Below, one piece after another: positions 370 to 64,000 of a stretch of DNA of 64,000 bases. The notes under the pieces were generated by a model that had not been told where the DNA came from, did not search any database, and saw nothing but the letters and a program-made list of their open reading frames with translations. Location: IMG/VR virus record IMGVR_UViG_3300027963_005443; one strand, 5' to 3'. Both the position numbers and the translations under genes were made by a program. How positions within the stretch are numbered: the first letter of the stretch is position 1; every line of letters starts with the position of its first letter. Source of the DNA: a virus.

Positions 370-2001
370 TTATTTACTTTTTTTTGTTAATTTTTTTTTA
401 TTTTCCAAGGCCGCCGAAACAAAACCTTTAAAAAGAGGAGCGGCATCTGACAATCTGCTCTTAAATTCTGGATGTGCTTGTGTTCCGACAAAAAATGGAT
501 GCTTTAGTTGATCTAATTCCATTATTTCAACTAATTTGGTTTCCGGGTTAAATCCAGATAGATTTAAGCCCTTCTTAGCAAAAATCTCTAAATACTTAGG
601 ATTAACCTCGAGCCTATGTCTGTGCCTTTCGCTTATTGTGTTTTTATTGTCCCATCTATTTGGCGACCCAGAATAAACATTGTGAGCAATTGTGCCTTTA
701 ATTAATTCACAATTATAAGATCCTAATCTCATACTAGCGCTCTTAACTGCTATATCTTTTTGTCCTACTAAATAATGAACAACTGGGTCAACTGCATCTT
801 TGTCGAATTCTTGGCTATTAGCCCCCAGCATACTGCAAACATTTTTAGCAAATTCAATTACTGCACATTGCAGTCCTAGGCATATACCAAGAAATGGAAT
901 CTTATTTTCTCTAACATACTTTATACACTGAATTTTTCCTTCTGTTCCATTTTTATCAAACCCCCCAGGAACTATTAGTCCATCTATATCCTTGATAGTT
1001 TCCTTAACATTTTTATTGTCAATATCCTGTGCACGGATCCACTTTATATTTATCTTAACCCCATAAAACATTGAGGTGTGGGTAAGAGCTTCCTTCAAAG
1101 AAAGATAAGCCTCATCATGATTTGAATACTTTCCACAGATGCCAATAGTCATCTCTTCATTTATTGGTTTCTCAATTAGTTCTTTGTACTTATGTATTCT
1201 ACATGAGCTTCTCTTGAGCCTGAGCATATCTACACAATAATCATCTATATGTCTATTGTAAAATTCTATTGGAACTTGATAGACAGAATCTACGTCTCTG
1301 GCTTCGAATATAGCACCCCTATCAACACCCGTCATATCAGATACTTTATCTAATAATTTAACAGGTATTTCTCTGTCTACTCTGCACAGAAGCAATTCAG
1401 GATTTATACCATATTGATATAGTTGCTTGACTGCATTCTGTAGAGGTTTAGTCTTAAATTCTTTTATGGTTGGAACCCAGAGTATGGGCGCAACCATTGC
1501 CACCATGACATCATTTTTTTGTTCAAATTGACGAACTGCTTCGTAGAATACAGCACTTTCCATATCCCCCACAGTTCCGCCTATCTCACATATAACCACC
1601 TCTGAAGTTTTACCTAGACTTAAAAGACGATCTTGAATCTTATCTGTTACATGGGGCATAATTTGAAGAGTTCTCCCCAAATTTTCACCCTTTTCCTGAC
1701 CAACTATCAATTCTTTGTAAAGAGTTCCAGAAGTGCATATATTTTGGCTGGACATATTGATACCAGCAATTCGCTCAACGGTACCAAGGTCTAGATCTGT
1801 TTCTTTACCATCATCGCAAAGAAAACATTCTCCATGTTCAATAGGAGATAATACACCGGCATCCGAGGATAAATAAGGTTCAAACTTTATGTAGTTGACC
1901 TTATATCCACGAAGTTTTAACAACAAGGCTATAGAAGCAGATGCTACACCCTTGCCAGTTCCAGAAATTACTCCACCACAAACAATAATATATTTGGCCA
2001 T
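370..2001 (-). CDS. pyrG: CTP synthase
   Basis: GGVISGTGKG, EIGGTVGDMES, KTKPLQ, glutaminase GICLG and HPE motifs all intact. Confidence 0.97.
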   Translation of the reverse strand: MAKYIIVCGGVISGTGKGVASASIALLLKLRGYKVNYIKFEPYLSSDAGVLSPIEHGECFLCDDGKETDLDLGTVERIAGINMSSQNICTSGTLYKELIVGQEKGENLGRTLQIMPHVTDKIQDRLLSLGKTSEVVICEIGGTVGDMESAVFYEAVRQFEQKNDVMVAMVAPILWVPTIKEFKTKPLQNAVKQLYQYGINPELLLCRVDREIPVKLLDKVSDMTGVDRGAIFEARDVDSVYQVPIEFYNRHIDDYCVDMLRLKRSSCRIHKYKELIEKPINEEMTIGICGKYSNHDEAYLSLKEALTHTSMFYGVKINIKWIRAQDIDNKNVKETIKDIDGLIVPGGFDKNGTEGKIQCIKYVRENKIPFLGICLGLQCAVIEFAKNVCSMLGANSQEFDKDAVDPVVHYLVGQKDIAVKSASMRLGSYNCELIKGTIAHNVYSGSPNRWDNKNTISERHRHRLEVNPKYLEIFAKKGLNLSGFNPETKLVEIMELDQLKHPFFVGTQAHPEFKSRLSDAAPLFKGFVSAALENKKKLTKKSK

Positions 2002-2010
2002 TTTTTTAAA

Positions 2011-5000
2011 TTAATTTAATTCACATTTACCACCTGCACACGCAATTGTGTCCATTGGTTTAGTATAGTCTTTATCTTCTAAAAATTGGGTGTAGTCTAC
2101 TTCCTTATATTCCTTGGTTAAATCTAACCAGATTTTCCAATTATTTACATGTTTTAACATGTATGTGCATTTTTTAATATTGCCATCACAATATCTCATT
2201 GCAAATTGTCGGACTCTTCTAACCCAATCATTTTTTAACTCCCAGGATTTTTCTTCCTCCGGCTGAGTTGGCTTATCTAAAGCATATAAACCAACTGCGT
2301 AGTTGCATGCCTCCCAAAGATCTCCATAAGCATGTAAACCATCAACTATTAATCCGCTCGCAAGCAAGCAGCCTTCACCGTATTCTTGTAATATCTCTTT
2401 TGCATTCAAGACATTGCAAAAAGGAGCCTGAGGATAGTCTAAATCTCCACTTGCAGGAAGCAAACTAACTCCAGCAAAATACTTTCTATTCTTGTAGATG
2501 AAGTCTCCTACAATTTCCCACTCATCGGGACGAACATTAATTGTATTGCTAACATTATGACTTAACCAAGGTTGTGTGCAAGCACTTTTACGCTTACCAT
2601 AAGCCACCCAATTTTGTTGAGTAGTTTTCACATACTCTAGAAGGTCTTGAGCACTCAAATCATTCTTGGTTTTTGCTGCAGTTGGTACTTCAACACAGAA
2701 AGTAACAACTTCGTCTTTTTTGTTTGCACTCCAAACACTCTTATCAACAGCATGTGGATTAAACTTCTTGAAATATTGAAGAACGGGCTCCATTTGATTT
2801 GCCTGAGTTCTTCTGAAGTATCTCTTTGCATGATGAGGATGAATTCCGCTGCTTGTCCCCAATAAGCAGCTAGTGGTTCCTGCAGGTTTGATGCAGGTGG
2901 ACCTTGCACATGGATTTATACCAATCTTTTTAGCCATCCATTCATTGGTATCCAAAACCAGTTTGGCCATTTCCTTTTGAACTTCAGGATCGAATATTAC
3001 ATCTGGGTTGTCCATCATGCCAGTAATACTAACGCCTAACAAAGCTTCACGTTCCACAATCTTCTCAGTGGTTTTACCCAGATAAGGAAAACTTGTATAC
3101 CCTGCTTGTAAGGTTCCGATAATAGAAGCAGCCCTTGCAGCAATGGCAAAATCTTCCTTGCATTTAATCTTTTTGCCATTTATTTCGGTTAGATTGCAAC
3201 ACTGCCAGCCAGATTCTCCTGTTTCTATATCTACTGGGTACATGCCGATTTCCACGCATCTACGAGCAGTCATTCCTTCGGCAATCAAAGTTCTCCGATT
3301 ATTTTCTGTTAGACAGAAGACATCTTGTTTACCAATGTAAGTTATAGACTTAACTTTGGAAGAATAGTTTGGATGCCTTGGTGTCTGTGATTTTTCAAGA
3401 GCATAATTTATCCTTGTGACATCTTTGGTGTGTATGTCCAAGAAACTCAAACTATTTTTACAATTCAACAAACCTCCAACTATAAGTCTGTAACTCTCTT
3501 TTGTATTATAAGACCTATAGTTTCTGTTACTATCTGGGAGCATAGCTGAGCCAGCTTTTCTAGAGAGAAAAATCTTGCTAAAAACACCGAGCTCCTGAAG
3601 AATAAGTTGAATATCTGAAAGGATCTTCTTATTAACAGAAGTCAATCTCAGGCTAACTGTTTTTACCTCATCGGAATATTCTGTGTGTCCATCGCAATAA
3701 AACATTGCAGAAACAAATCCAGATTTAAACTCTTTGTTTTTAGAGTGGATAAAATCAATATTGTCTTTGTTTGCAGAAATGCCCTCTAATTTAAATATTT
3801 GACCAAGCAATGTACTTGAAAGAGTAAATTTTGGTTTACCTCCATAAATTTTGCCTTCATTGATACTAAACTTGGGATTGGTATTAGAATTTACATTTAA
3901 GTTTAAACTATCGATGTTGGCTTTGATTTCTTCTGATACGATGTTCTCAATCTTTGCTGCTAATGCGGGAGAATCTTCGCCCCACATTTCAATTCTGGCT
4001 GCGCCATCAGTAAAGCATCCATCGCCAAAAACCATTCCAACTAAATAACCAAAATTAAAGTCTCTTGAATCTTTCTTGGACTCATATAATTCTGGAAGTG
4101 GAACTAATACCTCATCGTCTACTCTAAGATCCTCCAACTTAACCATGCCGTTAACTGTGGCAAAATGATGGTTTCCAGTAGCTTTGACTTTTCGTCCACA
4201 ACTAAGTTCTAACTCGTAAACATCTCTATTACGACCAGTTCTACGAATGTTGGTTGCTAAATTAGATGTTGCTTCGTTAGGCAAATCCAAATTAATATCC
4301 CAAAATTCTTCATTATTTTCAATTCTTCCTAACACCCTATTATCTTGAAGAATTTTTACCTCTTCTCCCAGAATGGAGGAGAAAGACATCCAGCCACTTT
4401 CCGTTAGAATTCTTGTATCTATTGTGAAGCATGGGTTTGGAACTTGCTCCGTGCTGTCACTCCAATAGAAACCCGGTTCACCAAACTGCTTAATTGATTC
4501 CATAAGTTTCAAAAAGTCTTCTTTTGAAACTTCATCCCTAATTAAAACAGCAGAATTATTTGATCTGGCTCGCTGAGGATTATCGACAAACCAATTACCA
4601 GTCTTGGCAGTAGCCATTTCTTCATCATCGTGACTGAACAAAGCAATAGTAGCTGAGCGTCTAACGCCACCAGATAACACAGCATCACTTGCGTGCATTA
4701 TTATGTCGTAGGCATCTATTGATTTTAGTTTCTTTTGTTTGTTTTCTAAACAACGATCTAATAATTTCCTGATTATCTCCAAACTTCTCTTAAGAGGTTC
4801 TGATCCTGGGGCTTTGCCTACACCAGAAGCAAGAATTGTCCCTTCTGCCCTGATTAGGCTGTAGTCAAAATCTACATTAAAACCTTTCCATTCAGAAAAC
4901 TCTTGGTGAGGAAGATAGGTGGCAAGGAGAATCCCTAAAGCATCAGCCCAACCTTCAATTGTATCTGGGATAGAAAAAGTTTTGGATTCAAGAGCGGTTC

Positions 5001-5388
5001 TATCCAACTTATGAAAATTTGGAAGTTTATCCACATGATGTTTTTGAACGCTGAACCCCGTCCCTGCGCCGCAAAGTAATAGCCAAAAAGATTCTTGAAA
5101 AAATCTTATGCGATCACAAAAGCTAGATGTACAGTTGAAAATACGAGCATTCTTCTTCTCACATGGTTCTCCTCCAAATTGCAAAGCTCTTTGGGAACCA
5201 AGTACTTTTCTCTGTTTGACCATTTCAAATGCCCATTCAATATCCTCCGATGCTTGGGGATATCTACGAAGATGCATTTGCTTAACACGATCAACAGCCT
5301 CGGCCCATGTCTCTCTACGACCCTCTTCTTTGTTATATCGAGCGTATTTAGAGTAATAGGTATAATCTTGAAGAGCTTTTACTGACAT
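2011..5388 (-). CDS. nrdJ: Class II (adenosylcobalamin-dependent) ribonucleotide reductase containing an intein
   Basis: FNC, GGVRRSA, NPC/EI split by insertion, IKPAGTTS, C-terminal CAGGKC pair; SD AAGGAG upstream. Confidence 0.93.
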   Translation of the reverse strand: MSVKALQDYTYYSKYARYNKEEGRRETWAEAVDRVKQMHLRRYPQASEDIEWAFEMVKQRKVLGSQRALQFGGEPCEKKNARIFNCTSSFCDRIRFFQESFWLLLCGAGTGFSVQKHHVDKLPNFHKLDRTALESKTFSIPDTIEGWADALGILLATYLPHQEFSEWKGFNVDFDYSLIRAEGTILASGVGKAPGSEPLKRSLEIIRKLLDRCLENKQKKLKSIDAYDIIMHASDAVLSGGVRRSATIALFSHDDEEMATAKTGNWFVDNPQRARSNNSAVLIRDEVSKEDFLKLMESIKQFGEPGFYWSDSTEQVPNPCFTIDTRILTESGWMSFSSILGEEVKILQDNRVLGRIENNEEFWDINLDLPNEATSNLATNIRRTGRNRDVYELELSCGRKVKATGNHHFATVNGMVKLEDLRVDDEVLVPLPELYESKKDSRDFNFGYLVGMVFGDGCFTDGAARIEMWGEDSPALAAKIENIVSEEIKANIDSLNLNVNSNTNPKFSINEGKIYGGKPKFTLSSTLLGQIFKLEGISANKDNIDFIHSKNKEFKSGFVSAMFYCDGHTEYSDEVKTVSLRLTSVNKKILSDIQLILQELGVFSKIFLSRKAGSAMLPDSNRNYRSYNTKESYRLIVGGLLNCKNSLSFLDIHTKDVTRINYALEKSQTPRHPNYSSKVKSITYIGKQDVFCLTENNRRTLIAEGMTARRCVEIGMYPVDIETGESGWQCCNLTEINGKKIKCKEDFAIAARAASIIGTLQAGYTSFPYLGKTTEKIVEREALLGVSITGMMDNPDVIFDPEVQKEMAKLVLDTNEWMAKKIGINPCARSTCIKPAGTTSCLLGTSSGIHPHHAKRYFRRTQANQMEPVLQYFKKFNPHAVDKSVWSANKKDEVVTFCVEVPTAAKTKNDLSAQDLLEYVKTTQQNWVAYGKRKSACTQPWLSHNVSNTINVRPDEWEIVGDFIYKNRKYFAGVSLLPASGDLDYPQAPFCNVLNAKEILQEYGEGCLLASGLIVDGLHAYGDLWEACNYAVGLYALDKPTQPEEEKSWELKNDWVRRVRQFAMRYCDGNIKKCTYMLKHVNNWKIWLDLTKEYKEVDYTQFLEDKDYTKPMDTIACAGGKCELN
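3259..4431 (-). mobile_element. Intein (391 aa) with LAGLIDADG-type homing endonuclease and atypical Arg C-terminus
   Basis: Begins CFTIDTRILTESG after PNP; block B ATGNHHF; LAGLIDADG-like GMVFGDG and AMFYCDG; ends DVFCLTENNRRTLIAEGMTARR followed by CVEI. Confidence 0.9.
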
Positions 5389-5547
5389 GGTTCTCCTTTA
5401 GTTTCTAGATTTAGGTAAAGTATATTTAGTTGGAAAGAATTTTTTTTATTGACAATTTTTAATAAAAATTATCAATTTATTTTGTCTTGTTTTTCTATAT
5501 TAACTTCACAAGATTATAGCTAAAAAGTTAATATAAACAAGAGACAT

Positions 5548-7551
5548 TTAATCTTTTTCTAATTTAGAAATTCCATTTTCCATTATTAGATTTAAAATAT
5601 CTGAGCCGGAGAGCATAGATAGCAAATCGTTATCGTGAGTGGTAATAAAAATTTGTCGATCCTCCGCCAACTCACATATCATGTGATAAATATTATTAAC
5701 TCCTATTGGATCAATGTTTGTCGTAACTTCATCAAGAAACATTATGCTTGGGCAAGTTCCGGTGGTGAGTAGCATCACATGTGCAAAGCTCAAAGAAACA
5801 GCAAGATTTAGTCTTCTCTTTTGTCCTGCGCTCATGGTGTGATAGAAGAAATCAATTTGTTCATCATTGATTATTTTAAATATACTTTCTTCTAATTCAT
5901 TATTAAATTCTATCTTCAACCTGTTGTTGTCAAGGACTTGCATCCAATACATCAATTTAGAATTAAGGGCAGGGATTATTCCATCTACAACCCATTTTCG
6001 GATTCCTTTATCTCCAAATGCATCCACCCAGAATGAATAATAGGGAATTTCTTTTTCAGCCTCTTGAATCTTTTCCTTCTTGGATTCAACAGCTTCTTCT
6101 GCCTCTTCTTTATCTTTAATTAAATTTGCAATTATTTCAGAATATGGAGATGTATTCTCGAACTCTTCTTTTAACTCCTTAGCCTTTTTAGTTAATAATT
6201 CTATTTCAGCCTGCAGCACTTTTTTTACAGAATTGGATTCAGGCTCTTTTATAGCAGAAAGTTTGACAAATTCATTTCTAAAAGAATTTAAGTTGACATT
6301 AATTTCTTGCTCTTTTTTAGAAAATTCCAATACCTTTTTTTCTTTTTCTTTAATATCTTCTTCAAGCTTTTTCGGATTTAAACTTAATATATCTTCAGAA
6401 AAATCTTTAATCTCTTTTTCAAGAACATCGTTATCTTCATTATATTTTTCAAGTACCTTTGAATAATTCTCGGGGTCTATCTTCCCATAACACACGCTAC
6501 ATGTTTGACCAGGTTCATGTTCATGTAATTTCTTAATTTCCTTATTATTTTTTTCTACACTAGATTTTTTATTCTTTATTTCGAAATCAAGTTTGCGAAT
6601 AGAATCTTTTTTTGATTCAAATTCTTTTTTAATCAAATCAATAGACTCTTTTAATTTTAATTTGTCATCAGCTAATTTTTTAATAACAGAATTATTATTC
6701 TCTATATCGATATTTATTTCATCAATTCTTTCCCTTGCCTTTTCATACTCAGATAAATCTTCTTCTTCATTAAGATTTTCAAGCTTGGATTTCTTATCTT
6801 TTATAGAAACAATTAGAGTTGATATTTCTTTCTTTTTACCATTCTTCCAAGAAATTTCATTTTGATTTGCTTGTTCTATTTTTTGTTCTATAGATGTTTT
6901 GTTCTTATCCAGAATTTCATATTCAGATGTATATTGTTTTAAAAAATTCTTACTATCCCTCAATAAGTTCTTACTTGCATCAAATCTCTGTCTGTAAACA
7001 TCTAGACTTAAAAGATTCTCTACAATTTCACGTTTTTTGGGAGTGTCGGCTTCTAAGAAATAGCTACTGATGTCATCTGTGAAAACGGAAGTTTTAATAA
7101 ACGATTCATAAGAAAGCCCTATTATTTCTTCTATCTTAAGCTGTGTATCAACAGATTTGCCCTGTGTGATTTCTGTTTTATCAGTCCAATCTTGATCTTC
7201 ACTCTCCCAGAGTCTCAGGAAATCAGGACTTCTTCCTCTTGAGACCTTGTATTTATCAAATATAATTTCTACTTTACAATTCTTCTTGATTAAATTATTG
7301 ACAACATCATTCTTGCTGAATTTCTTTGGGCTTTTAATTGTTTTGCCAAATAAGGCGTAAACAATAATCTCAGGGATACTGGATTTGCCAGAGCCGTTGC
7401 TCGACTCCTTTAAAGAGCTTTCATCTATATCCATGTTTTGACCACGGACCAAAATGATATTGCTCAATTCTTCAAAAGATATCTCTATGCCCTCTGGGCC
7501 GAATGGCAAAAAGTTATAAGCAGAAGCGCTTTTAAATTTTAGATTTTTCAT
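5548..7551 (-). CDS. gp46: Rad50/SbcC-like recombination ATPase (T4 gp46-like)
   Basis: Walker A NGSGKS, coiled coil with CSVC hook, signature MSAGQ, Walker B FLDE. Confidence 0.93.
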   Translation of the reverse strand: MKNLKFKSASAYNFLPFGPEGIEISFEELSNIILVRGQNMDIDESSLKESSNGSGKSSIPEIIVYALFGKTIKSPKKFSKNDVVNNLIKKNCKVEIIFDKYKVSRGRSPDFLRLWESEDQDWTDKTEITQGKSVDTQLKIEEIIGLSYESFIKTSVFTDDISSYFLEADTPKKREIVENLLSLDVYRQRFDASKNLLRDSKNFLKQYTSEYEILDKNKTSIEQKIEQANQNEISWKNGKKKEISTLIVSIKDKKSKLENLNEEEDLSEYEKARERIDEINIDIENNNSVIKKLADDKLKLKESIDLIKKEFESKKDSIRKLDFEIKNKKSSVEKNNKEIKKLHEHEPGQTCSVCYGKIDPENYSKVLEKYNEDNDVLEKEIKDFSEDILSLNPKKLEEDIKEKEKKVLEFSKKEQEINVNLNSFRNEFVKLSAIKEPESNSVKKVLQAEIELLTKKAKELKEEFENTSPYSEIIANLIKDKEEAEEAVESKKEKIQEAEKEIPYYSFWVDAFGDKGIRKWVVDGIIPALNSKLMYWMQVLDNNRLKIEFNNELEESIFKIINDEQIDFFYHTMSAGQKRRLNLAVSLSFAHVMLLTTGTCPSIMFLDEVTTNIDPIGVNNIYHMICELAEDRQIFITTHDNDLLSMLSGSDILNLIMENGISKLEKD

Positions 7552-25041: not shown

Positions 25042-26307
25042 CTAAACATAACAAAAATTATCATATAGTTTCATAGTCATACTATACAATTTCCTTTTAT
25101 CTATCAAGAATCTTAGGATAGGTACCAAATAAGAGTGCTTTCTTCTACTGGCGGTGATATCTTTTTCTTTAGTGAATGTCTCACTATCCATCAAGGATGC
25201 TCTCTCTGTCTTTGGAGAGCTGGTTTTCTCCGGAGACGATATAGTGGAGAGGAAAGAAGGAGTTAATTTCCATTTGCATGCTATTCCTTTAATTCTCTTC
25301 TCTTTATTTCCAAATGTATACTTGTTATCAATCCAGTCTATTAATCCTAATTCAGATAGTTTATCTCTTATTGCTTTCCATCTATGATGATTCCATCCTC
25401 GATTAACATCACCTTTTGAATATAAACTATCCCATAAACCTTTTATTCTTTCAGTTGGTACTGAGCCATCTGTATTTGGATTTTTATTTACAAACAAAAG
25501 TATCATTGTTCCTATCGACCAATCGTGGGCTGTCACCCTGAAGCCCCTCCCTTTTAAGTCTTTTATCTTTGAATTAAAGAATTCTTCATAATTCTTGAGT
25601 TCTAATAAATCTTTTTCATTAAATAATTTGTTACTTACGCTTCCCTTTATTTCCTTGTATTTTCTCTGTATGTAAAATTCTTTTTCTATCTCTTTGATAT
25701 TAAATACTTTGCACTCCCGTGCAGTTTCTATATCCCTTGGTAATTTAGCCAATGTTCCATATTTTATATTTTTAATTTCATCTTCGTGGTAGATTAATTC
25801 TGGGCAATTGCCTTTTACTTCTACTTGTTCGATATCTGCCTCTATTTTTAGGGCTTCCGTTCTCAACCAATTTTCGAATCCCTTTAATACTTTATTGACA
25901 TGTTTCGCATCATGTCCTTCTTTTTCTAATAAAAAATAGGCATGAATTCCTTTTTTATTTGTGCTGGGTTCGTAATAAAGGCTTTTAAATTTATCTTTTA
26001 GGTGCTCTACGAAATTAATGGCACCTTCTGTTGATCCTTTTTTTTGTGTTTTTTGTATGTCTATGTCTATCATTACAAGAGTATTCTTGTCTTTTCTGCG
26101 GCCATTTCCGTAATAATATATTGTTGTTTTACCGCTTACATGATCTTTTATTTTATTTTCGGATAATTTTCGGGGAGCAAGTCTCCCGCTTCGCAGGAGA
26201 TTCTTTTTTGATATATTGGGACGTATTCCCTTTGCTGTTTTCTCCCCATAAGCTAGTCTGCTTATGGCTTTTCTGACCCATTTAGCGTCGAATGTTTCTG
26301 AGATCAT
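25042..26307 (-). CDS. AEP-superfamily primase/prim-pol-like protein with C-terminal wHTH-like region
   Basis: Motif I VMIDID, motif II PSTNKKGIHAYF, motif III-like VEVKG. Confidence 0.65.
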   Translation of the reverse strand: MISETFDAKWVRKAISRLAYGEKTAKGIRPNISKKNLLRSGRLAPRKLSENKIKDHVSGKTTIYYYGNGRRKDKNTLVMIDIDIQKTQKKGSTEGAINFVEHLKDKFKSLYYEPSTNKKGIHAYFLLEKEGHDAKHVNKVLKGFENWLRTEALKIEADIEQVEVKGNCPELIYHEDEIKNIKYGTLAKLPRDIETARECKVFNIKEIEKEFYIQRKYKEIKGSVSNKLFNEKDLLELKNYEEFFNSKIKDLKGRGFRVTAHDWSIGTMILLFVNKNPNTDGSVPTERIKGLWDSLYSKGDVNRGWNHHRWKAIRDKLSELGLIDWIDNKYTFGNKEKRIKGIACKWKLTPSFLSTISSPEKTSSPKTERASLMDSETFTKEKDITASRRKHSYLVPILRFLIDKRKLYSMTMKLYDNFCYV

Positions 26308-48556: not shown

Positions 48557-48928
48557 ATGAGTGATTATAAAAATTTTGCTAAAAGTATAGTTCAAAATTG
48601 GAAGAATGAAAATGAAAACTCATTTTCATTTAATAGCGAAAGTTTAGCAAAACTTACCGCAGATCTTCTATCGTTTCTAGATAGTTCGGTGCACTACGCC
48701 GAGGAGAATATAAATTCTAGCGGAAGAAATAAAAAAGCTGTTGTTTTAGCTATTATGCAAATTATTTTTGTGGACATAGTCTTAAATAATCTTCCAATTT
48801 ATCTTAAACCTTTTGAACAACTAATTAAATTTATCGCAGTAAATATATTATTCAGTGTTATTATTGATTTTATAGTTAAAAAATATAAAGAGGGGATATG
48901 GAAAAAGGAGGCCAAAAATGAAGTGTAA
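48557..48928 (+). CDS. Holin-like membrane protein (LL-H-like)
   Basis: SD GGAGG; AEE..SGRNKK motif; two hydrophobic C-terminal segments. Confidence 0.5.
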   Translation: MSDYKNFAKSIVQNWKNENENSFSFNSESLAKLTADLLSFLDSSVHYAEENINSSGRNKKAVVLAIMQIIFVDIVLNNLPIYLKPFEQLIKFIAVNILFSVIIDFIVKKYKEGIWKKEAKNEV

Positions 48929-49847
48929 TTTATTACCATATACAAGAGAAGATGTTTACTCTATACAGGAAGTCAGACAGGCTGCTGGCTGGGAGATAAC
49001 TACGTTTAATCTTCCTGATAAATGGAAACTATCTCAAGGGGAAGGGGTAAAGATAGCCGTAGTAGATACGGGTTGTGATCTTAATCATGAAGATTTAAAA
49101 AATAATCTTTTACAAGGTAGAAATTTTGTTAATAAAAATAAAGATCCAATGGATTATAATTCTCACGGCACCCATGTTGCCGGAACTATATGCGCCGAAA
49201 ACAATAATGTTGGTGTAATTGGAGTTGCTCCTAAATCTAAAGTTATACCTATTAAGGCATTGGATGATAATGGTAGCGGCAATATGGACAATATAGCAGA
49301 AGCTATTAGATGGGCCGCAGATCAAGGTTCCGATTTTATAACTATGAGTTTGGGATCTCCGGGCCATGTGCCGAGTATTAGAAATGCCATACAATATGCT
49401 TTATCCAAAAAGTGCATTACATTTTGCGCCGCAGGCAATGCAGGCTCTACAAGAGAGATTTACTATCCAGCAAATTATCCCGAGACTATAGGAATAGGAT
49501 CCATAGACCAAAACTTTGAAAGAGCTAGTTTTAGTTGCACTGGCGAGGATTTAGATTTTTTGGCCCCCGGAGTCAAAATATTTAGCACAGTTCCAACTAA
49601 TTGGTATGCATATATGAGCGGAACAAGCATGAGCACCCCATTTGCTGTTGGATGTGCCGCATTATTGTTATCCTATGTTAGAAATAATAGCACAGGATTA
49701 GTTTTGGATAATGATAATGACTATAGAAAAGCTTTTAGAAAAAAAACAATGTCTTTAAAAAATAAAGACTTTGCAGGTAAAAAGTTTTTCGAAGGTTTCG
49801 GTATTATAGATCCAAATCAATTTGAAGAATGGGTTAAAAACAATTAA
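48918..49847 (+). CDS. S8 subtilisin-like serine protease lacking signal and propeptide
   Basis: Triad VDTG, HGTHVAG, SGTSMSTP; oxyanion AAGN; SD GGAGG. Confidence 0.95.
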   Translation: MKCNLLPYTREDVYSIQEVRQAAGWEITTFNLPDKWKLSQGEGVKIAVVDTGCDLNHEDLKNNLLQGRNFVNKNKDPMDYNSHGTHVAGTICAENNNVGVIGVAPKSKVIPIKALDDNGSGNMDNIAEAIRWAADQGSDFITMSLGSPGHVPSIRNAIQYALSKKCITFCAAGNAGSTREIYYPANYPETIGIGSIDQNFERASFSCTGEDLDFLAPGVKIFSTVPTNWYAYMSGTSMSTPFAVGCAALLLSYVRNNSTGLVLDNDNDYRKAFRKKTMSLKNKDFAGKKFFEGFGIIDPNQFEEWVKNN

Positions 49848-61081: not shown

Positions 61082-61086
61082 TTTTG

Positions 61087-64000
61087 ATGCCAAGAAAAAC
61101 ACTAATACAAATTAGAAGAGGGACAGATGCTGAGTGGTCCCTGACCAATCCCACACTAGGCTGGGGAGAGCCCGGATTTGAATGGAACACTAATAGGATA
61201 AAAATTGGTGACGGAGAAACTCTGTGGAATGATCTTCCCTATAGTTCGGGAACTTTATTAAAATTTACTGATTACTCGTCTCTTCCTGAAATTGGTTATG
61301 CGGGTAATTTTTATCTAACATTAGATAATTTTAGTTTATATATTTGGAATATTGACCAGTATAGTTTAATTACTAGTCAAAGCGTTCAAGGAGTAACTGG
61401 CTCTCAAGGAACTCAAGGACTGCAAGGTCCACAAGGAACAACTGGTATTCAAGGACTACAGGGAACTTCTGGATTGCAGGGAACACAAGGATTGGGATTT
61501 AATTGGAGGGGTGAGTGGGAGGACATACAATATACCTTGAATGATGTGGTTTCTTATAATAATGAATTATGGATAGCATTGCTTGAAGATGTTAATGGTC
61601 CAGTTCCTGGCCTCACGGTTATCGAGTGGGGATTATTTGTTCCACAAGGAGCACAAGGAACACAAGGAACAACTGGTAGTCAGGGAGTTGGTTTTAATTT
61701 TCGTGGACCATGGTCTGGTGATAGCACTTATTATCAAAATGATGTAGTTACATATAATGGATCTTCTTATATAGGAATATCTCTTGATCTTAGTAGTTAT
61801 GTAGGTTGTACGTCTTGCACTCCTACTGCAAGGGCAGACTTATGGAGCATAATTTCTGCTCAAGGAACTCAAGGCTTACAGGGAACTCAAGGTTTACAAG
61901 GATTGCAGGGTGTCACGGGAAACAAAGCGGGCCTTCAGTATAATTTCAATGCCGATACTTCTGGTGTTCTAGCTGATGCAACCATAAGATACAACAGTTC
62001 AACTTTGTCCTCTGTGACACAAATAGTTGTTAGCCATGTAGATGCAAATTCAGTAGAACAATACGACTTTTTCTACAACCTATTTGGCGGAACGTCAGCG
62101 AACAAGGGTTACATTTACATATCAGAAAACAATCCAAGTTCAACAGTATTCAATTCGTTCGCTGTGTCTGACATTGGTGATGCAAGTAATGGAGACATTG
62201 AACTTGCAGTGACCTATGTTGCCGGATCAACCTTGCCGGAAAATGGGAATCGCTTGGCTATTGTGGTTGGTAAAACCGGCGATCAAGGTTCGATTGTGGT
62301 TGGTGCAGCCGGTTCGCAAGGAGTTCAAGGAACAACCGGCGATCAAGGTTTGCAAGGAGTTCAAGGAACTCAAGGTTTGCAAGGAGTTCAAGGAACTCAA
62401 GGTTTACAAGGTTTACAAGGAACTCAAGGTTTACAAGGAACTCAAGGTTTACAAGGAACTCAAGGTTTACAAGGAACTCAAGGTTTACAAGGAACTCAAG
62501 GTTTACAAGGAACTCAAGGTTTACAAGGAACTCAAGGTTTACAAGGAACCCAAGGTTTACAAGGAACCCAAGGCTTACAAGGAACTCAAGGTTTACAAGG
62601 CACTCAAGGTATACAAGGTCGTCAAGGTATACAAGGTCGTCAAGGCGTTCAAGGAACACAAGGCACAGGCTTTTCTTGGAAGGGATCGTGGAGTGCCTAT
62701 TCCCAATATTTAATTAATGATGTGGTTCGATATAACGGAAGTTCATATGTAGCTACTGTAAATTTCACAGGTAACTGCCCCAGTGGTATAACTACTCCTG
62801 AAAATTGGTTTTGCTGTCCAGATAACATATATGCTGCGCCTACTGCTGGGCAATGTCCACCGATAGCTGGGTCATATTCTTCATTTGACCCAGTATCTTA
62901 CCCAGATGGTTGGTCACTTATGGCAAGCCAAGGAACTCAGGGCATACAAGGACGTCAAGGAACACAAGGAACTCAAGGTTTACAGGGAACTCAAGGAACT
63001 CAAGGAACTCAAGGAACTCAAGGTTTACAAGGAACAACTGGTAGTCAGGGAACTCAAGGAGTTCAAGGAACTCAAGGTTTACAAGGTTTACAAGGAACTC
63101 AAGGTTTACAAGGACTGCAAGGCTTACAAGGAACTCAAGGTTTACAAGGACTGCAAGGCTTACAAGGAACTCAAGGCTTACAAGGAACTCAAGGAACACA
63201 AGGAACTCAAGGAACACAAGGAACTCAAGGCTTACAAGGAACAACTGGTAGTCAAGGAACAACTGGTAGTCAAGGAACCCAAGGAACTCAAGGAACTCAA
63301 GGTTTACAAGGAACTCAAGGTTTACAAGGAACAACTGGTAGTCAGGGAACCCAAGGAACCCAAGGTTTACAAGGAACTCAGGGCACTCAAGGTATACAAG
63401 GTGTACAAGGAACCCAAGGTTTACAAGGAACTCAGGGCACTCAAGGTATACAAGGTGTACAAGGACTGCAAGGTTTACAAGGAACTCAAGGTTTACAAGG
63501 AACTCAAGGTTTACAAGGAACTCAAGGTTTACAAGGACTGCAAGGCTTACAAGGAACTCAAGGCTTACAAGGAACTCAAGGAACACAAGGAACTCAAGGA
63601 ACACAAGGAACTCAAGGTTTACAAGGAACAACTGGTAGTCAAGGAACAACTGGTAGTCAAGGAACCCAAGGAACTCAAGGAACTCAAGGTTTACAAGGAA
63701 CTCAAGGTTTACAAGGAACAACTGGTAGTCAGGGAACCCAAGGAACCCAAGGTTTACAAGGAACTCAGGGCACTCAAGGTATACAAGGTGTACAAGGAAC
63801 CCAAGGTTTACAAGGAACTCAGGGCACTCAAGGTATACAAGGTGTACAAGGACTGCAAGGTTTACAAGGAACTCAAGGTTTACAAGGAACTCAAGGTTTA
63901 CAAGGAACTCAAGGTTTACAAGGAACTCAAGGTTTACAAGGACTGCAAGGCTTACAAGGAACTCAAGGCTTACAAGGAACTCAAGGAACACAAGGAACTC
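61087..64000 (+). CDS. Collagen-like fibre protein (partial, runs off window end) with Mtd-like N-terminal domain and three CBM5/12-like modules
   Basis: Missed by track (no stop in window). Manual translation MPRKTLIQIRRGT...GEPGFE..KIGDG, then Gly-X-Gln repeats and W..Y..NDVV.YN modules; no stop found in frame. Confidence 0.92.
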   Translation, partial: MPRKTLIQIRRGTDAEWSLTNPTLGWGEPGFEWNTNRIKIGDGETLWNDLPYSSGTLLKFTDYSSLPEIGYAGNFYLTLDNFSLYIWNIDQYSLITSQSVQGVTGSQGTQGLQGPQGTTGIQGLQGTSGLQGTQGLGFNWRGEWEDIQYTLNDVVSYNNELWIALLEDVNGPVPGLTVIEWGLFVPQGAQGTQGTTGSQGVGFNFRGPWSGDSTYYQNDVVTYNGSSYIGISLDLSSYVGCTSCTPTARADLWSIISAQGTQGLQGTQGLQGLQGVTGNKAGLQYNFNADTSGVLADATIRYNSSTLSSVTQIVVSHVDANSVEQYDFFYNLFGGTSANKGYIYISENNPSSTVFNSFAVSDIGDASNGDIELAVTYVAGSTLPENGNRLAIVVGKTGDQGSIVVGAAGSQGVQGTTGDQGLQGVQGTQGLQGVQGTQGLQGLQGTQGLQGTQGLQGTQGLQGTQGLQGTQGLQGTQGLQGTQGLQGTQGLQGTQGLQGTQGLQGTQGIQGRQGIQGRQGVQGTQGTGFSWKGSWSAYSQYLINDVVRYNGSSYVATVNFTGNCPSGITTPENWFCCPDNIYAAPTAGQCPPIAGSYSSFDPVSYPDGWSLMASQGTQGIQGRQGTQGTQGLQGTQGTQGTQGTQGLQGTTGSQGTQGVQGTQGLQGLQGTQGLQGLQGLQGTQGLQGLQGLQGTQGLQGTQGTQGTQGTQGTQGLQGTTGSQGTTGSQGTQGTQGTQGLQGTQGLQGTTGSQGTQGTQGLQGTQGTQGIQGVQGTQGLQGTQGTQGIQGVQGLQGLQGTQGLQGTQGLQGTQGLQGLQGLQGTQGLQGTQGTQGTQGTQGTQGLQGTTGSQGTTGSQGTQGTQGTQGLQGTQGLQGTTGSQGTQGTQGLQGTQGTQGIQGVQGTQGLQGTQGTQGIQGVQGLQGLQGTQGLQGTQGLQGTQGLQGTQGLQGLQGLQGTQGLQGTQGTQGT
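62341..62660 (+). repeat. 9/18-nt tandem repeats encoding (GLQGTQ)n; 7 perfect GGTTTACAAGGAACTCAA units at 62410-62535
   Basis: Direct reading. Confidence 0.9.
62929..64000 (+). repeat. Collagen-coding 9-nt repeat array with about 387-nt higher-order duplication
   Basis: ACAACTGGTAGTCAAGGAACAACTGGTAGT recurs at 63241 and 63628. Confidence 0.85.

Follow-up and report, generated by a model that had tools for sequence, protein, structure and literature searches.

How might an intein that ends in Arg-Arg, instead of His-Asn, free itself from the enzyme that it interrupts? The question is raised by a 64,000-nt stretch of viral DNA (IMG/VR record IMGVR_UViG_3300027963_005443; here "the window", to which all positions refer), a section of a large metagenomic genome of a T4-like myovirus, with a G+C content of 34%. 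On its minus strand lies a gene for a ribonucleotide reductase (RNR), whose NPC-x-E motif is interrupted by an intein between Pro and the catalytic Cys (junctions ..VPNP|CFTIDT.. and ..GMTARR|CVEIGMYP). A sequence-only reading of the window had noted this site and the Arg-Arg end, and both were as it described: the terminal intein codons were GCT CGT AGA (Ala-Arg-Arg), followed by TGC (Cys+1). The parts of the gene on which the argument depends are listed below; Arg-type refers to the relatives that share the Arg end.

2011..5388, minus strand: RTPR-like precursor gene with one intein, 1125 aa, an uninterrupted open reading frame (ORF; TIGR02505 RTPR, PF02867, PF17975, PF21995)
4432..5388, minus strand: N-extein, 319 aa, ending in Asn-Pro (match to 1L1L; Asn-Pro kept in 68-69 of 69 Arg-type hosts)
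3259..4431, minus strand: intein, 391 aa (protein residues 320-710), a HINT domain split by a LAGLIDADG homing endonuclease (PF14890, PF14528, AlphaFold2 (AF2) model, and the break in homology with the sibling phage L026)
2011..3258, minus strand: C-extein, 415 aa plus stop, with a C-terminal CxGGxC pair (CAGGKC; match to 1L1L)
4429..4431, minus strand: Cys1 (TGC), the N-terminal splicing nucleophile (invariant in 69/69 Arg-type and in 53/53 and 28/28 other relatives)
4168..4179, minus strand: block B Thr85-x-x-His88 (TGNH; Thr in 68/69, His in 69/69)
3313..3315, minus strand: Cys373 at block F:4, canonically Asp (aligned to the Asp of VFDLT in the Ssp DnaB mini-intein; Cys in 72/72 Arg-type)
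3304..3306, minus strand: Glu376 (72/72 in the Arg-type clade, mixed E/Q/V in relatives)
3292..3294, minus strand: Arg380 at the block-F His position, His F:13 of the 2014 intein review (Arg in 70/72, Lys in 2/72; His/Asn in relatives)
3259..3264, minus strand: Arg390-Arg391 (CGT AGA), the penultimate and last intein residues, replacing His-Asn (Arg391 at 3259..3261; terminal Arg invariant)
3256..3258, minus strand: Cys+1 (TGC), the C-extein nucleophile and the Cys of NPC-x-E (72/72; Glu at +3 in 71/72)

The ends of the intein were fixed by a sibling phage, L026 (protein P0049), which matches the window in gene order and is ~85% identical to it in DNA; more than 20 contigs of L026, the longest of 330 kb, were assembled. 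Homology between the two ran through the Cys1 codon, to its last base (4429), and restarted with the Cys+1 codon, at its first base (3258). Because the break fell at these codons, the intein extends from Cys1 to Arg391. Shifted boundaries (NPC|F...RRC|V) were ruled out by the same break, and Phe1 and Val+1 fit no intein class.

Between the two points L026 carried a 358-aa intein that was 25% identical to that of the window, with Asp at F:4 and the end Val-His-Asn|Cys. The exteins of the two phages were 95.8% identical. This showed that one and the same host protein can be served, at a single site, by either an Arg-type or a canonical His-Asn intein.

Relatives came from a word-indexed search and from HMMER, run in full against 1.84 billion representatives; together these gave ~190 inteins that could be aligned over the C-terminal junction. 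All of them sit at the NPC|CxE site of RNRs. Cys at F:4 was combined with a terminal Arg in 71, with Gln in 38 and with Asn in 27. Asp at F:4 was combined with a terminal Asn in 41 and with Gln in 14, and with Arg in none. The search for conserved Arg ends at this RNR site, which the sequence-only reading had proposed, thus found 71 relatives that end in Arg.

The Arg-enders were 30-56% identical to the window intein, and their hosts had RTPR-like (CVEIG/CFEIG) or NrdJ-like (CGEIPL/CGEQPL) exteins. The penultimate residue of the Arg-type inteins was mostly Arg as well (R in 61, A in 4, K in 2, and E, Q, S and V in one each). Four Arg-enders of 243-338 aa had lost most of the endonuclease and kept RR|C. 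The IMG/VR scan gave only 10-11 loci and the JGI metagenomes 6, which left 12 distinct DNA copies for the codon statistics. In these, AGG encoded the terminal Arg in five and AGA in four, the others being CGC, CGA and CGG.

A sequencing or assembly error, against which the sequence-only reading had advised checking the AGA codon, was ruled out by these results. The terminal Arg was invariant in diverged relatives, with five different codons, and the precursor protein (P0002) was found identical on two contigs, one of 228 kb. A 99%-identical copy of the gene was also present in a 103.6-kb IMG/VR record (21% complete by CheckV). Codon reassignment or suppressor reading was ruled out by the use of five Arg codons from both codon boxes, and no tRNA genes were found in the window. 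Removal at the RNA level by a group I or II intron was rejected: no Rfam match was found over 1800..5700, and the HINT blocks are under selection at the protein level.

Nor could the intein be regarded as recently crippled, another suggestion of the same reading. A terminal Arg that is invariant in 71 diverged relatives is not a sign of decay, purifying selection was strong on intein and exteins alike, and the mini versions kept their splicing blocks. Between Arg-type pairs the ratio of nonsynonymous to synonymous substitution rates (dN/dS) of the intein was 0.088 (L003/L012) and 0.097 (L009/L017), and that of the exteins was 0.03-0.07 at dS up to about 2. The exteins of the window and L026 gave a dN/dS of 0.02-0.03 at dS 0.9. 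Of about 70 hosts, 68-72 had an intact Asn-Pro...Cys-x-Glu motif in the exteins, and every host inspected had the C-terminal Cys pair.

In the L003/L012 pair the dS of the intein was 0.63, compared with about 2 for the exteins, and the L016/L018 pair was mosaic. Low intein dS and mosaicism are as expected from homing, and this suggests that the intein is mobile.

The worry that Arg-ending RNR inteins might already be catalogued was not borne out. No description of them was found in the literature searched, and the terminal residues given in the 2014 review are Asn, Gln, Asp and Glu only (PMC4031507).

In trees built from 154 HINT columns, from which the trait columns had been removed, 69 Arg-enders and three other inteins formed one clade, with a support of 96 (FastTree) and 98 (IQ-TREE, SH-aLRT). 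The three others were P0094 (..RQ|C), P0110 (..KN|C) and P0183 (..RN|C). Invariant or nearly invariant in the clade, but not among its relatives, were Cys373 (F:4), Glu376, Arg380 and Arg391. Arg380 and Arg391 go together, since the three N/Q-enders within the clade carry His or Asn at position 380; with only one or two evolutionary events behind it, this coupling carries no statistical weight.

Outside the Arg clade (relatives P0048-P0197), the tree implied more than 20 switches of the terminal residue from Asn to Gln or back, and the penultimate residue was mostly Gly, not His. The sister groups held 51 Gln-enders. For a single intein family, that of the NPC|CxE site of RNRs, such a step-3 residue set is unusually labile.

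Every genomic context looked at was phage-like. No copy was found in 185,579 prokaryote genomes (two scans), with search patterns that fit the main subclade only, and no such intein occurred among the cultured phages in INPHARED, where the best matches were SPbeta-type NrdE inteins with 24-27% identity. Judged from their sequences, the Arg-ending inteins are a conserved, mobile, monophyletic and phage-borne lineage.

The host enzyme was predicted to be of the RTPR-like type (monomeric, B12-dependent, class II). 1L1L, the RTPR of L. leichmannii, was the sole PDB match of either extein, and the features of this type were present: the NP|C-V-E motif, which splicing would restore, the C-terminal Cys pair and the similarity to 1L1L. 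The TIGR02505 score of the precursor, 210 bits, is under the cut-off of 340 of that model. RTPR homologues of cultured phages matched the exteins only, not the insert.

Cys+1 of the NPC-x-E motif corresponds to the established thiyl-radical Cys (Cys408 in L. leichmannii RTPR). With an insert at the thiyl-radical Cys, the unspliced RNR must be inactive. Three Arg-type phage genomes rated complete by CheckV (138, 194 and 169 kb) had no second large-subunit (PF02867), class III (PF13597) or class I small-subunit (PF00268) RNR. On the other hand, a 318-kb phage-like contig (L039) had a 709-aa RNR gene (PF02867, 5872-8001), with no noted intein, directly upstream of the RNR with an Arg-type intein (P0105, 8001-11294). 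The two appear to be class II RNR genes in tandem, so not every host has a single RNR.

Splicing itself, with all of its chemistry, is what we infer here, in contrast to the anatomy, boundaries, conservation, selection, mobility and sole-RNR status: a 391-aa insert on the thiyl-radical Cys would bar catalysis, while the enzyme is strongly constrained. If the intein is removed, the Arg391-Cys+1 bond must be cut without an Asn. We consider it likely that the intein removes itself by some non-Asn chemistry. The sequence-only reading had listed non-canonical splicing or cleavage among its options, and the conserved Arg and the selection do point that way; the specific chemistry is proposed here from sequence comparison. 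Probably the lineage finishes splicing by a chemistry not yet described.

The intein resembled class 1 in having Cys at 1 and at +1 and Thr-x-x-His in block B. It departed from class 1 in lacking a C-terminal Asn, Gln, Asp or Glu, as well as Asp F:4, His F:13 and His G:6. The lineage thus probably works like a class 1 intein in the first two steps.

Steps 1 and 2 would then follow the standard class 1 chemistry. A thioester would form at Cys1, aided by the Thr and His of block B, and the N-extein would be handed to Cys+1, the catalytic cysteine of the RNR. Step 3 is driven by His F:13, His G:6 and Asn G:7 in the inteins described, and His G:6 is missing in about 5% of the functional ones (PMC4031507). 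The window intein has Arg at all three of these positions, and Cys in place of Asp F:4.

For step 3 we tentatively favor a cut of the C-terminal junction by Arg391, in which its N-epsilon would attack its own backbone carbonyl to give a six-membered delta-lactam. Cys+1 would thereby be released and could undergo the final S-to-N shift. Polarization of the scissile bond and a lower pKa of the guanidinium may come from Arg380 and Glu376, perhaps with help from Cys373. A prior N-to-S shift at the Arg391-Cys+1 bond, which is speculative, would supply activation.

That the terminal Arg is fixed and does not drift suggested that its side chain matters. The N-epsilon of Arg and the amide N of Gln are equally far from C-alpha, which would make the delta-lactam step a topological twin of the glutarimide route in the Gln-ending sister inteins. 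Gln-ending RNR inteins splice (PMC4031507), and a change from Gln to Arg takes one transition (CAR to CGR). In activated Arg, the attack of an internal guanidine N on its own carbonyl to form a delta-lactam is a classic side reaction (PMC3597280, PMC7352207).

With the same reserve, Arg-terminated inteins could be a new mechanistic splicing class. They would cyclize Arg to a delta-lactam, as an "arginine peptide lyase" of a kind not known in any protein, and would have been derived from Gln-ending RNR inteins by a single transition together with Arg at the block-F His position.

Several points weigh against this proposal. The guanidinium (pKa about 13.8) is a poor nucleophile, and the delta-lactam formation is known from activated esters, not amides. 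Cys F:4 was also found with Asn and Gln ends (65 cases), and hence is not Arg-specific. Finally, sole-RNR status counts for less because a phage may be able to do without its RNR.

The intein could instead splice itself with the last cut made by Cys373 or by an activated water, with no Arg cyclization. The thiol of Cys373 would attack the carbonyl at the Arg391-Cys+1 bond, or the thioester there after an N-to-S shift, as in a cysteine protease, and leave an intein thiolactone that is later hydrolyzed; Arg380 and Arg391 would serve as oxyanion hole or electrostatic catalysts. Cys F:4 was present in all Arg-enders (72/72) and Asp there in none, and in class 3 inteins this Cys has been proven to act as an active-site nucleophile, adjacent to the two junctions (PMC4031507). 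In the Cys F:4 relatives, about 20 switches of the terminal residue between Asn and Gln, with the penultimate His already lost (mostly to Gly), also suggested a relaxed need for the classical step-3 set. But a terminal side chain that takes no part should drift, and Arg was fixed in 69/72 clade members and co-varied with Arg380. Moreover, Asn- and Gln-enders, for which the classical route is available, showed the same invariance of Cys F:4. We consider this route unlikely, and Arg cyclization remains our preferred reading. That the intein is a slow or conditional switch, whatever its chemistry, is a rather more doubtful idea, one that the sequence-only reading had raised as an off-switch on dNTP supply. 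The precursor would build up and the RNR would be freed only under some condition (redox, pH, nucleotide or B12 status). It is established that an insert on the thiyl-radical Cys leaves the unspliced enzyme inactive, and the three cysteines in one active site (Cys1, Cys373 and Cys+1) could make regulatory disulfides; Gln-ending inteins, furthermore, tolerate a slow step 3 (PMC4031507). Against a switch, the near-identical RNR of the sibling phage is served by a canonical His-Asn intein, so the host protein needs no special regulation, and a switch would be an overlay on a chemistry and not an alternative to one.

The two other explanations do without a self-catalyzed last step. If the intein performed only the first two steps, the Arg-Cys bond might be cut in trans by a protease that recognizes a basic pair. 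The end was mostly dibasic (R-R in 61, K-R in 2), and the phage encodes a subtilase (PF00082, E 3e-56; window 48918..49847, plus strand), which is also present in its IMG/VR record. The penultimate residue may, however, be A, E, Q, S or V. The subtilase was absent from the three complete Arg-type genomes, which ruled it out as a conserved helper, and no conserved protease gene stood beside the RNR in loci L003-L009, L039 and L040. A homing element that depended on a helper would also spread poorly, and we regard cleavage in trans as improbable. A selfish homing element that does not splice and has knocked out a dispensable phage RNR would agree with the general knowledge that phage nucleotide-metabolism genes are often non-essential. 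Such a knockout is hard to reconcile with the extein dN/dS in Arg-type hosts of 0.02-0.07, where dS reached about 2, and with the intact NP|C-x-E motif and Cys pair. The ORFs were open in all hosts, and the mini-inteins retained the splicing blocks. This reading is highly improbable.

Comparison with known inteins placed the lineage apart from each of them. Gln-ending class 1 inteins (Chilo iridescent virus RNR, Pyrococcus abyssi Pol II; PMC4031507) share with it Cys1, the T-x-x-H of block B and Cys+1, and a six-membered ring would form in both. The Gln-ending RNR relatives with Cys F:4 (e.g. P0048, P0067 and P0091) share the NPC|CxE site, Cys F:4 and the loss of the penultimate His. Unlike the Gln-ending inteins, the window lineage ends in Arg, which has no amide, carries Arg at the block-F His/Asn position and forms a separate clade.

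Canonical His-Asn RNR inteins (L026/P0049, the SPbeta bnrdE family and PI-PfuI, 1dq3) have the same HINT and LAGLIDADG architecture and fold. The SPbeta-type NrdE inteins are 24-27% identical to the window intein, and the L026 intein has exactly the same insertion point. In contrast to their Asp F:4, block-F His and His-Asn end, the window intein has Cys, Arg and Arg-Arg.

Class 3 inteins (mycobacteriophage Bethlehem DnaB, Deinococcus Snf2) also have Cys F:4 and are a phage-associated lineage. They lack an N-terminal nucleophile, and their Trp-Cys-Thr signature consists of Trp at B:12, Cys F:4 and a Thr that precedes the terminal Asn. Class 3 membership was ruled out by the invariant Cys1, by the residue at B:12 (Phe in 46, Ile in 8 and Val in 6) and by the Arg-Arg end. 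A bacterial intein-like (BIL) domain was also ruled out, given the invariant Cys+1 and the site in the catalytic motif of an RNR.

Among solved structures, the best sequence match was the M86 variant of the Ssp DnaB mini-intein (PDB 6frh/6frg). Its block F reads ..VFDLTVPGLRNF.., with an Arg aligned to Arg380. Unlike the window intein, M86 retains Asp F:4 and ends in His-Asn, although the alignment stopped short of its C-terminus. The wild-type Ssp DnaB intein has His where M86 has this Arg. The Arg of M86, set against the wild-type His, suggested that efficient splicing is compatible with Arg at the Arg380 position.

Four Arg-type hosts (P0003, P0004, P0007 and P0046) had a second intein, ~230 residues upstream (about residues 88-386 of P0003). 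It stood before the Cys of a conserved ..RIYN|C.. motif, had Cys F:4 in its block F (..VWCLEVE..) and ended in Thr-Gly-Asn|Cys. Cys F:4 with a Gly-Asn end thus recurs at another Cys site of the same enzyme.

The profile matches agreed with an intein: PF14890 scored 43.5 bits (cut-off 35.8), and TIGR01445 matched the N-terminal region. No model of the C-terminal splicing region was among the NCBIfam matches of the precursor. An AF2 model of the intein, built from eight sequences, had a pLDDT of 90.4 and a pTM of 0.90. Its best PDB matches by Foldseek were TliVMA (7qsu), the RNR intein PI-PfuI (1dq3) and PI-SceI (E 1e-17 to 1e-11), and the endonuclease part matched I-DmoI. Two motifs mark this part.

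4018..4050, minus strand: LAGLIDADG motif 1, GYLVGMVFGDG, with Asp137 (sequence motif)
3688..3720, minus strand: LAGLIDADG motif 2, GFVSAMFYCDG, with Asp247 (sequence motif)

The double motif, PF14528 and the I-DmoI-like fold are the features of a double-motif LAGLIDADG endonuclease. Asp137 and Asp247 were kept in 41/45, and a nuclease function is predicted. The sequence-only reading had called the splicing blocks, both motifs and the ORF intact. This held for the open ORF, for blocks A and B and for the two motifs with their Asp residues, but not for block F, which is non-canonical (Cys F:4, and Arg for the block-F His).

Asn cyclization is the textbook last step of splicing, with Gln, Asp and Glu as the only substitutes described, and a conserved, mobile lineage with an Arg end, carried in the only RNR of several phages, would mean that the C-terminal junction can be cut in another way. 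If Arg cyclization or a Cys F:4 relay is true, it would be a new self-processing chemistry and possibly a new handle for intein-based cleavage and ligation tools. Annotation rules that demand His-Asn will miss or mislabel Arg-ending inteins; in the present case only the N-terminal NCBIfam intein model matched.

Two further genes were noted on other contigs with Arg-type RNR inteins. One was a free-standing LAGLIDADG-type ORF (252 aa; L004:1590-2348), ~650 bp upstream of the RNR gene. The other, a 905-aa terminase-like gene (L040:14654-17371) with faint LAGLIDADG and Terminase_6C matches, is probably an intein-containing large terminase.

Elsewhere in the window the gene products included a tail sheath, gp15- and baseplate-like proteins, gp32- and RecA/UvsX-like proteins, a family A polymerase, helicases, an SbcCD-like pair and a CTP synthase. 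Adjoining the family A DNA polymerase gene, 25042..26307 (minus strand) gave a weak, sub-cut-off match to PF22548, the archaeo-eukaryotic primase domain of the TOTE conflict system. At 61084..63999 (plus strand), a protein of more than 970 aa that runs past the window end had collagen triple-helix repeats (PF01391, E 7e-83) and a carbohydrate-binding module (CBM5/12), and may be a fiber or decoration protein.

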